Of a stretch of 64,000 nt of DNA, positions 48,309 through 54,300 are shown piece after piece. The stretch comes from Escherichia coli (lineage in GTDB: Bacteria; Pseudomonadota; Gammaproteobacteria; Enterobacterales; Enterobacteriaceae): NCBI RefSeq assembly GCF_050920415.1, contig NZ_CP169309.1; one strand, given 5' to 3'. Each line of letters starts with the position of its first letter. Within the stretch, counting starts at the first letter, position 1. Made by a program: the position numbers.

Positions 48309-51300
48309 CTCTGCAACGTCCTTCAGAAGGTCATCGGGATGTGCAAACCAACCAGCATCCAGATATTCCTGAATCTCTTCGGCTTTCACGATTTCAAAGT
48401 CGTATCCAACGCCTTTCCATTTCTTCATGTCTCCATGACGAAAGATCATGTGTGTCATGCTTGTCTCCAGATAAAAAAGGGAGCCGAAGCTCCCTCTGGT
48501 TATCACGCAGTCTGGTTAGGCAGACCAACACCAATTGCCTCTGGTCGTACAGCACATGCTGAATACCACACAGCAATACGGCACTTGCCAGACAGAGTGT
48601 TGATATCACCCTGCGTTGCGAAGATGCCGTTAACACCAATACCTGGAATGCTGAAGGAAGAAGTTTTCATGCCAGCAAACAGTTCATGGGTTACCGGAAT
48701 CGGCTGAGACAGCAGGCGGATTGAGTCATCAGCCCAGAACACGTTAGCGGTGGTTGTTGCCACGTTCAGAACGTTTACCGGAGTGGCATCAGCAAGAGAG
48801 GTGTTTACGTTAGCGTAAGCCTTCTCTTCTTTTGTCAGTGACGAGTCATCCAGCGCAATCGGCTTCGGCGTGATTTCGATGTGAGTACTATGAATCACTC
48901 GGGTGATTGAGAAAGTAGCATCATCAGTCAGCACGTTCTTCGCCATCTGAGATAGGAATTTCACACCAGTGAAGCTGATTTTGTCGCCGCGCTTAAATCC
49001 GGTGGTGGAGGATACGGTCACCGTTGCAACACGGTTGTCGACGTTCTCTTTGTTACCATCGGTATCAAGGGTGTATGCCTGCGGCTTAAACTTCTGCGCA
49101 CCAGAAACAGTTACACCAGTAGCGGTTGACTTGGTAACTGCCGGAAGTTTCGGTGAGCGAAGAATTTCATCAAAGCCAGCAATCTGACGCTGAATAGTAC
49201 CGTTACGATACGCTTCTTCAGGAACGCGCCCAAAGATGTCACCATCTACCAGGTTGCGGCCTGCTTTGCGGTAATCGTCAGGGTTCAGGAAGTAACTGAT
49301 GCCCATATCGCGGTTTAGCTCACGGGAGAACATCAGGCGCTCTGCATCAGACACAAAATCCCAGCCAGACAGGCCAGTAGATGGACCAATTGCGCGGGTA
49401 TCGTGAACAACAAGTGAGCCCATTTCGGTTGCCTGTTTGGCAATTGCTGACTCAATGTTATTCGCCAGTTTTTTGGCGGATGCCTGGATGCGGCGACGGT
49501 AAGAACGCTCATCACGCAGGTCATCTGCACGAAGCTCGAAGAAATCGTTATCCGGATTGCCCATGTTGCATTTCACGGAGAGTTCCAGAATCCCGGTTGC
49601 GTTGCCAGTTAAATCCCAGCCTGTCTGAGTTGGCGCTTCCTGCTCAACAGGCATCCACACGGTGTTGCTTGAACGTTGCATGGATTCTGCCGGAGGGGTG
49701 TATTTTGTCACTTTGGACGCCATTGGCGTCAGGTTCTGGACGGTTTCGATGATTTCATCCAGAGCATATGTGACCAGTTGACCTTCATTTAATGCCATTA
49801 TCGAATTCCTTTATTCAGTTGCGCCTTAAGCTTGCGGTACGTCTCTACATCACCTTTGTTTGCTGCCGCTTCCATCTGCTTTTCAATCGCAGAGATATTT
49901 GCAGCAACAGCGTGTCCCTGAATGGGTTCATCAGGTAACGGGGCTTCTGAAACAGACTTGGCTCGAGGCTTGAGAGTTAAACGTTCTGACAGTCGAGTGA
50001 GTTCAATCAGCGCGGATTGCCCGTCCATCGCCAGTAACTGGCGTGTTTTCTCAGGATTAGCACCAAGGTGATACATGAGAGCAGCGGATTTCTCCGGGAA
50101 GAGGCGCATGATGTCGGCACCGACTGCTGGCGGCACCAGTTGCATGAATGCATCCTCTTTCTCCTGATAGTCAGGGATATTGAGCTTTTCCGCTGCGTCG
50201 TAGTGCTTACGGGCTGCCTCGACGTATTGCGCTGATTGCTGGGTGAACTCCTGAGTTTTGCGACCCTGCTCGGCGACAGCCTGGCTTCGTGCGTCCATGG
50301 CCTTGATCTGCCATTCACTGTTTGCCTGCTGGAAGGCAGCCAGTGCGCGGCTCTGGTCATAGTCGTACTTAGCCAGTGCATCTTCGGAAAGATAATCGTT
50401 AGGGTCTGGTTGTTTTGGTAACTCAGGGTTCACCCGCAGGTGCTCCGGCAACTCTCCACGCTTAACCGCTTCCATCTGCTGCTCAAGCTCACGCTGGCGT
50501 TTGCGTTCGATGCGGCGACGGGCAAATTCAGCATTAGTTGCCGGGTCTTGTTTTGGTTTCTCATCGTCTTTCAGGACAATCTCAAAGCCTTCTTCCTGAC
50601 CTGCGCTGTCGTTGGCATTATCGACAACTAAGCCATCAGCAGATGCCGCTGCATGATTGCCGGGCAGGGTTAATTCTTCAGAAGCCTGAATGTCGGTGGT
50701 TTGGTCCATGGTTAACTCTCTCTTATTGAGGTGTCTCGGCTACTCCGCCGGAGGGGATTTGAACTTGACGCATAAGATTCGCGAAATCCATGCGTTGTGA
50801 ATGAGTCTGGTCTGCATCTTTAAGAAGCAGCTCAGCGTTAGCACGAGCATCTTTGCTGCGCTGTTGCTGGAATTGACCTACGAGCTTGAGGTACTCACGC
50901 AGTTCTGCCTGCTTGTCGAGGTCCATATTGTTGAAGATTTCTGCAATCTTCGCGGCGTTGAGTTGGTTTTGGGCTTCAACCTTGGCGGCTTCAACCTGAA
51001 TCTGCGCCTGTTGGTTCTCTGCCTTGATCAATTCAGCCTGACCTTGCAGAAGGATACCCTGCGCCTGAATTTGCTCTGCTGATGGCTGCTGCGGCTGCTG
51101 TTGCGCCTGTTGCACCATCTCCATCTCTTCAGGTGTTTCTGGTTTCTTCAGCCACATCATCACCAGTTGCTTGTTCGCGTACTCTCGCATCATCTCGAAC
51201 GCCTTTACCGTCAAGCAGCGTGAAGTATTGCAACATCAGCATCTGGAACTCTGGAGTACCTTGCGGAACCTTGGTGAGTAACTCCTGAATCTCTGCGCGG

Positions 51301-54300
51301 TTCTGTTCCTTCATACTCTGGAAGGATGGTCCAACGTCGGTATAGCACTCATAGCGACCGCGAATGTCGTTGAGTGTGACCACATTACCGGACTGGTAAT
51401 CTACAACTTGCGCGTAGAGTTGAACGTCTTTCTCGCTACCATCTTCAAGTGTCAGCGTTACATGACGAGGAACGTCATAAATATCATTGACCATTGAAGC
51501 ATAAATCTCGCCATCACGTCGCATTGCGGTAGCAAGGTTATCCTGAAACACGTATGTCTCAAGGTCTGCCCGCATGTTCAGTTGATTGACGGTATCGAAA
51601 GCGACCTGAGAGTTTGCTGCCTGCGCATCCACACCAAGACTAGCCACCTCTTTCACTGCGTTGGTGGCAGCCTCAAGCATGTAAGCGTTGGCTTGCGGCA
51701 CTTCAGGGTTTTCCATGTAGGAGATTGGACCAATCGGCAGGTCGTTGCCGTTTTCATCGGTCCTGTTCTGCAGATAGTACGGATAGTCATCATTTCCACC
51801 GTACATGTATTCGTAGCCTTCGATTTGCTCAGGGAAGAAGGTCGGTTTCTTCTTCGGTGAACGAGCAACAATATCGGCGTTGAATGACATGATCATGTTA
51901 CGAAGGCGTTGACCGTCTTTCGTCAGCCTTACCACTCCTTCGTAGCACTCCTTGTCACCAGCGAATGACCATTCGCCATATACTGGAACGATTGGAATAT
52001 GCTCTCCGGCTATCTTCTCGCGGTCTTTCAGTATCTGCGTGCAGGTGACGATCGACTTATACACACGCCGACGCTTCACCTTGCGCTCTGCTACCTTAAT
52101 GAATCCACGATTAGCCAGGTCGTCGATGACGTCTTTGATATCCTGCTGGTAATAGCTGACCGGCTCACCTGTCAGCGGGTCGCGGTAGATGAAGACTTTC
52201 TCTTTCTTCTCTTCGACCTCGTAATACTCAGCGACGTAGACGACATCATTCGATACCCACGGAAACAGCCATGTATCGTTTGGATTCTGGAAAGATGGCA
52301 GCGTGTCCGGATCAATACCGTAATCCTCTGCGAACTCTTTCCAGCCATTGCGCGACAAGGCGTTAATCACCGTGCAGTGCTTAGCGTCGCTCTTATCCAT
52401 CTGCTTGCTGTTGGCGTCCCATATGACGTGTGAGCAGGCTTCATGGATTGGCAGGCGTCGGATTACCTGATTGTTGCTTGTTGGATCGTTGTCTTCGTAC
52501 TGCGTGACCAGACGCCATGCACCAACGCCTGACTCTATCTGCTCACGAACGCCAACGTTAACGGCAATTTTTGCCGTATTATGGCGCATATCAGTACGAT
52601 ACATCCCCATCAGCACATCGGCAGCATCAGGATTAGCGCCGTCTTTTGGTCTGAAGAGAACATCGATAGGGTTCCGGCGCATCTCTGCGACCAGCTTCCT
52701 GACCACCGGGCGAACAACATCGAATTGTCCGCGATATTGCAGGGTGGTGTAGTTTGATAGCCAGTCATCCCATTGCGACACTCGGCTAAAATACAGGTCA
52801 TTTGTCGCCTCGGTTCTGGCTTCATCGCTCGCCATCCAGTCTGCGTCAAACTTACACAGAATGGAATTGAGTCTGTTTTCGTCGGCCATTTAAGTTCTCC
52901 GTGCGATGGGCCTGATTGGGGCTGGTATCTTTTTCTCTTTTGGCTTTTTGATGTCGCGCATCATTTTTGCGAAGCGGCGCATCATGTATGCATAGCGAAC
53001 GGCGGATAGCACGTCGTCGTTAAGCTTGACGATTTTCCCGTTTTCATCACGGTGATAGAGGCGGAACTCCTCAAAGAATGGCTCACAGGTGTTGAATACT
53101 TTGAAGCGACCGTCGAGCATCATGTCTCGCAATTCAGTGATGCCAGGCTCAACAGCGTTACCGCCATCAGGCCATGTCGCATGCTCCTGCAACATCATAA
53201 ATCCAGCGTCCGCATACTGCCCTTTGAGCTGCTCACCGCCGCCCTTCTCGTGCTGGTTTCCGTCATGAGGCCATGCGGTTGGCACTTTATGCGCCCATGG
53301 TTTAACAGCTCCCCACGCCTGAACGGCTGTCTTTTCTTTCGCCTTCCAAACGCGTGAAAGGTAGATTATGTCTGCGTCCTTATCCCACCAAAGCTGAACC
53401 TGCGCCTGCGGGTGATCCCATCCGAAATCCATACCGCCAATTACGTAGAAGTGATCAGGACACTCGAACGCTGACACTTAATCGTCTCTTCCGGTATCTG
53501 GAAGATTCGACCACTACCCATCGTAGGAATACCGCGAGCACGCGCCTCTCTCTCATGCTCAGGATAGGATGCGATGATTTGCTCTTTCTGCTCGTCGGTG
53601 TAGTGCTCAGCGTCATAGATGGTCATGTTGACCACTTTCTGAGACTTGCTGGGATTCTTCAGGAACTTGGTAACAACGTCAGACATCCCCATCAGCGGGG
53701 TAAACGTCAGAATTGAGAATTGCCCGTATTTGTTGGTACGGGTAAGACCTTCGCCATAAATGCTGTATGGTGGCTCTTCGTCAAACCACACGCCGTGGAT
53801 TGTGTCACCCTGCCAGCGAGCACGGCCTTGCGAGTATGGTTTGAAGTAGCAGATTGAAATGCCATCTTCAACGCCATCAGCCGTGTGATGCTTAACCAGA
53901 AGATGATCAACAAGGTTCGGAAAGAAAGGAGACTTCTTCCAGCTAATGATGTCTTCTTTCGGTATGGAACGTAGCCTGGCTCACCATTCTCTTCGATACG
54001 ACCGCACAGGATGCGTTGAGTCGTTTTGGTTACAGTCTCGTTTGTCTCTCCACCAATCCAGAAGACAACAGGCTCATAGAAACGCTTACCTTTCCACTCA
54101 CCGCCATATTTACCATCAGCAGGATAGCCTTTTGTGCCCGGATAACGACCGGTAAGGTGAAACGCGACTTCAGCAGCACCAGTAAATGACTTACCAAGCT
54201 GGTTACCAGCCATAAAACATCGCTCTGGATAGTCATGCCCGGCGTCGATGAACTCACGCTGCTTGCTGTATGGCGTAAATTCATATAGCAGGTGTGTGTT

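Follow-up and report, generated by a model that had tools for sequence, protein, structure and literature searches.

Is the portal gene of a P22-like prophage in Escherichia coli genuinely broken, or does the break belong to the assembly in which it was read? The question is raised by a 64,000-nucleotide (nt) stretch of contig NZ_CP169309.1 (RefSeq assembly GCF_050920415.1), referred to here as the window, in which the homologue of the P22 portal protein gp1 is written in two reading frames (Table 1). The first-pass annotation of this stretch had described the split as a second disabling lesion of the head module. The frameshift is present in the sequence as given, and the gene for the large terminase subunit (TerL) is also damaged, being spread over three frames. 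The biological half of the claim is nevertheless more likely wrong: the additional base is private to one sequence and belongs to a cluster of events that fits consensus errors better than a disabling lesion. We consider it likely that the extra T is an uncorrected long-read (nanopore-type) consensus error, located in a prophage segment of which a sibling strain has two copies.

A portal gene in two reading frames

In the relatives, the 2166-nt gene is annotated as portal protein, both in phage records and in complete E. coli genomes. Alignment to these intact copies places the lesion in the 51190–51200 interval where it had originally been suspected and reduces it to one extra T, at 51198/51199, which converts the relatives' GGCGTCGAG into the window's GGCGTTCGAG and the codons GGC GTC GAG ATG into GGC GTT CGA GAT G. 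The two states of the junction are represented by the k-mers GGCGTCGAGATG, without the extra T, and GGCGTTCGAGATG, with it. In P22 gp1 numbering, the break follows V565, which is residue 564 of the window protein. The conserved continuation had been reported as a separate 163-amino acid (aa) open reading frame (ORF) in another frame, and this description, along with the peptides quoted in its support, proved accurate: the ORF runs to the Gln-rich C-terminus and its frame is open from a TGA at 51238–51236. The two ORFs overlap, in different frames, by ~105 nt (51235..51129).

Homology to the full-length portal is retained across the break. In phmmer searches, residues 3–565 of the window portal align to residues 4–566 of P22 gp1 (E = 0; chains 3lj5, 5jj1 and 4v4k), and the 163-aa ORF aligns to residues 563–725 (E about 1e-57). 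The alignment to the P22 portal that had been proposed as a check is, accordingly, collinear, with the two ORFs together spanning residues 4–725. As written, the sequence does not contain the single ORF of ~720 aa that characterizes a P22-type portal, but deletion of one T at 51198 yields a 721-aa ORF identical to the portal encoded by the sibling contig L016, and PF16510 (P22_portal) is recorded for a protein identical to the repaired one. The gene is located between those for TerL and the scaffold, as expected for a P22-like head module.

If the frameshift were real, its consequences would be severe. The crown of P22 gp1 comprises residues 525–600 and the barrel residues 600–725 (PMC5290284), and the only part of the protein known so far to be dispensable is the last 50 residues, as exemplified by the dif1 mutant (PMC4992974). 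The portal would be cut in the middle of the crown with the loss of 157 native residues and, given that only the last 50 are known to be dispensable, the truncated product would very probably be non-functional.

Private differences in a prophage segment duplicated in a sibling strain

Siblings of the prophage were retrieved by exact look-up of three proteins from the window, namely, the scaffold, gp20 and the portal after repair. The lineage was recovered in this way from GCA_048027635.1, GCA_000194575.2, GCA_015518365.1, GCA_045005245.1 and several further independent assemblies, one of them a Logan SRA assembly; in these, the prophage occupies the same att site as in the window and is flanked by identical host sequence. 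The repaired 721-aa portal is the protein encoded in at least nine independent assemblies of this lineage, and 14 contigs from independent assemblies encode it exactly. At the DNA level, the portal gene differs from that of sibling contigs L015 and L016 by one gap and no mismatches, and the TerL gene by two gaps and no mismatches. A genuine pseudogene would have its lesion in the DNA of the organism itself; in this lineage, at least nine assemblies lack the extra T, which is also absent from 216 of 216 complete-genome relatives from E. coli. Scans for the junction carrying the insertion returned no match in viral contigs and none in metagenome contigs. Similarly, neither the truncated portal, nor the C-terminal ORF with any of three alternative starts, nor the two TerL fragments that were searched have an exact match in a collection of 15 billion proteins. 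The first-pass annotation had looked to a corrected sequence with one ~720-aa ORF as the outcome that would overturn its claim; the sibling assemblies, with the 721-aa portal intact, come close to this.

Among the RefSeq complete E. coli genomes, no copy of the same lineage was found, the best portal identity being 98.4%. The best 25-kb match in RefSeq, E. coli no107 (L004, NZ_CP075374.1), was considered as a reference and rejected because its record is itself full of frameshifts, including those in the portal and TerL genes. This genome, designated 'complete' in RefSeq, harbours a related P22-like prophage in which many frameshifts are annotated. The assembly was probably also made from long reads and is rich in errors, which would show that apparent lesions of this kind are common.

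Private events were called against at least nine same-lineage assemblies, within the range covered by the siblings (32907–62887). The same nine events, and nothing else, separate the window from every sibling, namely, six single-base insertions or deletions (indels) and three substitution events (Table 1). Besides the portal, the frameshifts affect the endolysin, TerL (twice), gp7 and a 56-aa ORF. All nine events are located between 44623 and 56796, and no private events relative to the siblings were detected in 32907–44622 or 56797–62887.

The affected region corresponds to a segment of the late region of which the sibling GCA_000194575.2 has two near-identical copies. This assembly carries two P22-like prophages, on contigs AEXD01000007.1 (L023) and AEXD01000017.1 (L024), which differ in their early and nin regions, with Rep-O/DnaB, as in the window, in one case versus a helix-turn-helix/Toprim primase and a Dam methylase in the other. 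The two contigs are 100% identical over the equivalent of window positions 49121–55272 (about 6 kb, including the small terminase subunit (TerS), TerL and portal genes) and near-identical up to about 58037, above which they begin to diverge. Short-read assemblies break at the edges of this segment: contigs L018 and L019 both start at 44667, and L025 spans 58288–44690. The two-copy state is thus seen directly in one sibling and implied by the contig breaks in others. Each of the nine private events lies within the segment or within 45 nt of its edge, and the unique parts of the window are clean.

The nature of the events is equally distinctive. Five of the nine fall inside GATC and one more abuts this motif, which covers 0.7% of the segment (binomial P 2e-9 and 1e-10). 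The events within GATC strike the G or the C of the motif, two of them being G>A changes (49558 and 44623), and the three events that neither fall in GATC nor abut it are without exception indels. Among spontaneous mutations of E. coli, substitutions reportedly outnumber indels by ~10:1. The predominance of indels, the GATC bias and the confinement to 44.6–56.8 kb depart from a natural mutation spectrum, and enrichment at Dam GATC sites in the form of G>A changes or indels is the pattern of nanopore errors at methylation motifs. The density of about 9 events per 12 kb corresponds to roughly Q31, which is typical of an unpolished nanopore consensus. Consensus errors at Dam GATC sites have been reported in Oxford Nanopore bacterial assemblies (PMC11610603), residual assembly errors inside GATC have also been found in Klebsiella and Salmonella (PMC12392509), and, of the sites prone to G>A errors in R10.4.1 reads from E. 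coli, about 81% are due to GATC (bioRxiv 10.64898/2026.01.14.699587).

Two of the indels outside GATC have a further feature in common. The portal insertion (51194–51202) and the TerL deletion at 53470 (53463–53471) both create the 9-mer GCGTTCGAG (minus strand; plus strand, CTCGAACGC), which is found nowhere else in the window nor in the intact reference. That two events yield the same, otherwise absent 9-mer suggests a systematic rather than random cause, possibly a strain-specific methylated motif or a bias of the consensus caller. A search for a methylation motif common to the three non-GATC indels showed that two contain TCGAG and yield the same 9-mer, which, as a motif, is not significant given the 23 TCGAG/CTCGA sites in the segment. 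Since the 37 kb of host flank contain no indels, errors specific to the region were preferred as a model to random error, which was rejected.

These observations can be accommodated in a simple scenario. The strain lineage would possess two P22-like prophages with a common, near-identical late region of about 13.4 kb. Long-read sequencing would introduce systematic errors into the consensus, above all at GATC sites methylated by Dam and in short single-base runs, and subsequent polishing with short reads would repair the unique sequence, that is, the host flank and the unique parts of the prophage, but fail in the two-copy repeat. Judging from standard practice, hybrid polishing would leave the repeat uncorrected because short reads cannot be placed uniquely there. 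Approximately one error per 1.3 kb would persist in the repeat, the portal T being one of them. For the source genome, we infer the sequencing platform, the polishing history and the two copies from these patterns. Under this scenario, the actual gene encodes a normal 721-aa portal.

Artefact, decay or editing

Several points weigh against a consensus error. The artefact is deduced from the comparison of assemblies and not observed in reads; the presence of two copies is demonstrated for a sibling strain, from which it is extended to the source genome itself; and in one sibling, GCA_048027635.1, the head genes seem to be present only once. The event at 44623 is ~45 nt outside the edge of the exact repeat, as estimated from contig ends. 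The portal insertion is not at a GATC or CCWGG site, and altogether three of the nine events, this insertion included, are away from the known E. coli methylation motifs. Finally, multiple frameshifts in lysis, packaging and portal genes also resemble genuine prophage decay.

The latter possibility, that the frameshift is real and very recent and that this copy of the prophage is decaying, with portal, TerL, endolysin and gp7 each lost to single-base indels, therefore deserves consideration, and we regard it as unlikely. Resident prophages usually end up with their lysis and virion genes inactivated, the frameshifts are present in the sequence as given and the portal truncation, if real, would be disabling. 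Furthermore, the sequence elsewhere in the window is very good, the 37-kb host flank having no indels, so that random error is rare in this assembly. However, decay of this kind would have to have produced three indels and no substitutions, relative to a sibling, in the portal and TerL genes, with indels making up six of the nine events overall, and to have done so at Dam GATC sites with an extreme preference (P about 1e-9) that, to our knowledge, no mutational process explains. It would also have to have spared the unique 13 kb of the same prophage while striking the duplicated segment, to have left its traces in a single assembly, and to have generated the same 9-mer twice. Moreover, once TerL was dead, there would have been no selection for four further hits. 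If the lesions were true, the prophage would be unable to package DNA, because TerL is broken as well as the portal, and equally unable to assemble virions or lyse the cell; even then, the portal would amount to a pseudogene of the ordinary kind, in a P22-like prophage that is defective.

The statistically extreme GATC enrichment and regional confinement could alternatively be taken at face value, as the result of damage to Dam sites, or of their editing, specifically in the late region of the prophage, with the portal indel as collateral. We find this highly improbable: the same signature is a documented nanopore artefact, the affected region coincides with the repeat and not with a functional unit, none of the 147 GATC sites in the host flank (37 kb compared with strain MFDS1022581) is changed, and we know of no mechanism of damage or editing specific to Dam sites. 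In its broadest form, with all nine changes real, this would amount to an undescribed process that mutates the terminal G:C pair of GATC and nearby short runs specifically in one prophage's late operon, so that genes for lysis, packaging, the portal and ejection would have been silenced very rapidly on an evolutionary scale, and the chance that this is the case appears very slim. Programmed +1 ribosomal frameshifting, by which a full-length portal would be made from the two ORFs, is scarcely credible and was rejected because the two-frame arrangement is conserved in no relative (the 216 E. coli relatives, the phage records and the same-lineage siblings all have the portal in a single frame) and because inspection of the overlap revealed no recognizable +1 site, such as a prfB-like CUU UGA with an upstream Shine-Dalgarno sequence; the C-terminal frame has 35 open codons ahead of the stop in frame 0, so that a +1 shift anywhere in this interval would join the parts, and rare CGA and AGA codons directly follow the insertion, but conserved residues of the crown would be replaced if the shift took place anywhere beyond the insertion.

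The finding is ordinary whether the extra T is an error or a mutation, and its practical implication is one of caution. A prophage whose portal, terminase, endolysin and gp7 genes together contain five frameshifts looks grounded but may be intact and inducible. If the artefact reading is correct, the strain would harbour, at the lambda attachment site and elsewhere, one or two P22-like prophages that are potentially functional. More generally, pseudogene calls in duplicated prophage segments of hybrid or long-read assemblies need read support.

The prophage, its host and related systems

Window positions 1–37137 represent E. coli chromosome (dinG ... moa, uvrB, bioDCFBA, ybhB). Over these 37,137 nt, which include the 147 GATC sites, there are two mismatches and no gaps relative to strain MFDS1022581, in which ybhC directly follows ybhB at the position occupied by the prophage in the window. 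The P22-like (Lederbergvirus-type) prophage, which uses the lambda attachment site, extends from 37138 to beyond 64000, and its integrase end falls outside the window. The gene order, which is typical of P22-like phages, is replication, nin, Q, lysis, TerS, TerL, portal, scaffold, coat, gp4, gp10, gp26 and gp14, followed by gp7, gp20, gp16, arc, tailspike and acyltransferase.

Table 1. Coordinates of the portal gene, the private differences and other features of the window; bases of the private differences are given for the minus strand
Feature	Position	Strand	Description
Portal gene (P22 gp1 homologue)	50723..52889	minus	2167 nt here, 2166 nt in all relatives
N-terminal portal ORF, 586 aa	52889..51129	minus	564 native residues (P22 gp1 4–565), 22-aa out-of-frame tail, TGA stop
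C-terminal portal ORF, 163 aa	51214..50723	minus	TTG start; P22 gp1 563–725, second half of crown and whole barrel
Portal lesion, one inserted base	51198/51199	minus	TT (plus strand: AA), single T in every relative; from alignment to intact relatives
Late-region segment	44650..58036	minus	Q/lysis, TerS, TerL, portal, scaffold, coat, gp4, gp10, gp26, gp14, start of gp7; two near-identical copies in sibling GCA_000194575.2
Endolysin (GH24)	56461..56936	minus	private 1-base deletion
TerL	52890..54387	minus	three frames through two private 1-base deletions; 0 substitutions relative to sibling
Coat gene	48503..49798	minus	private substitutions at GATC sites
Ejection protein gp7	44305..44996	minus	one frameshift and one synonymous private change
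Private event, delG	56796		endolysin; G of GATC
Private event, delA (AAA>AA)	55468		56-aa hypothetical ORF upstream of TerS; directly abuts GATC
Private event, delG (GG>G)	53970 (about)		TerL; no GATC, 6 nt from CCAGG Dcm site
Private event, delC (CC>C)	53470 (about)		TerL; no GATC
Private event, insT	51198		portal; no GATC
Private event, G>A	49558		coat, D81N; GATC>AATC
Private event, CG>TC	48893/48892		coat, D303H; GATCGAT>GATTCAT
Private event, delC	44865		gp7, frameshift; C of GATC
Private event, G>A	44623		gp7, synonymous; GATC>AATC
Lambda att core, GCTTTTTTATACTAA	37123..37137	minus	exact; host/prophage junction, between ybhB and prophage

At the att-proximal end, the tailspike gene is followed by an Acyl_transf_3 gene of the O-antigen acetyltransferase type (37395–38522 and 38519–40486, minus strand), which is likely a serotype-conversion module; this acyltransferase/tailspike end is identical in all sibling assemblies. 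Exact look-up of the 655-aa tailspike ORF gave no match, the relatives having an annotated product of 639 aa, a difference that probably reflects the choice of start codon. Upstream of gp4, a small ORF contains an in-frame 6-nt tandem difference (48268–48273), with GCCAGA present twice in the window versus once in sibling contig L021; here the lineages vary naturally, and the difference is not one of the private events. The density of GATC in the prophage (1.8 per kb in 37138–64000) is about half that in the host flank (4.0 per kb in 1–37137), in line with the selection against Dam sites that has long been known in enterobacterial phages. In the host flank, a 670-aa protein (3498–5510, minus strand) is annotated as 'type III effector' in MFDS1022581, and the host may be an attaching-and-effacing E. 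coli, similar to enteropathogenic or enterohaemorrhagic strains (EPEC/EHEC-like).

With respect to known systems, the portal gene matches P22 gp1 (PDB 3LJ5, 5JJ1, 5JJ3, 4V4K; PF16510) collinearly and over the full length, differing in that it is written in two frames through one extra base. The resemblance to P22 extends to the neighbourhood, which includes TerS, TerL, portal, scaffold, coat, gp4, gp10, gp26, gp14, gp7, gp20, gp16 and tailspike. The closest relatives at the DNA level are E. coli phages and prophages of the Lederbergvirus type (IME10, 98.4%), whereas Salmonella P22 shows about 74% DNA identity. Defective (cryptic) E. coli prophages resemble the sequence of the window in having single-base frameshifts in portal, terminase, endolysin and ejection-protein genes. 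Genuinely decaying prophages, however, accumulate substitutions, deletions and insertions of insertion sequences (IS) across the whole element, and these are common to clonal relatives, in contrast to the private, indel-dominated, GATC-centred and repeat-restricted events described here. The other system to be compared is that of nanopore errors at Dam GATC sites that survive hybrid polishing in repeats. Although three of the nine window events, the portal insertion among them, are off known methylation motifs, the window has in common with such errors the changes at the G or C of GATC, the G>A substitutions and the single-base indels; its events are confined to a segment of which a sibling strain has two copies.

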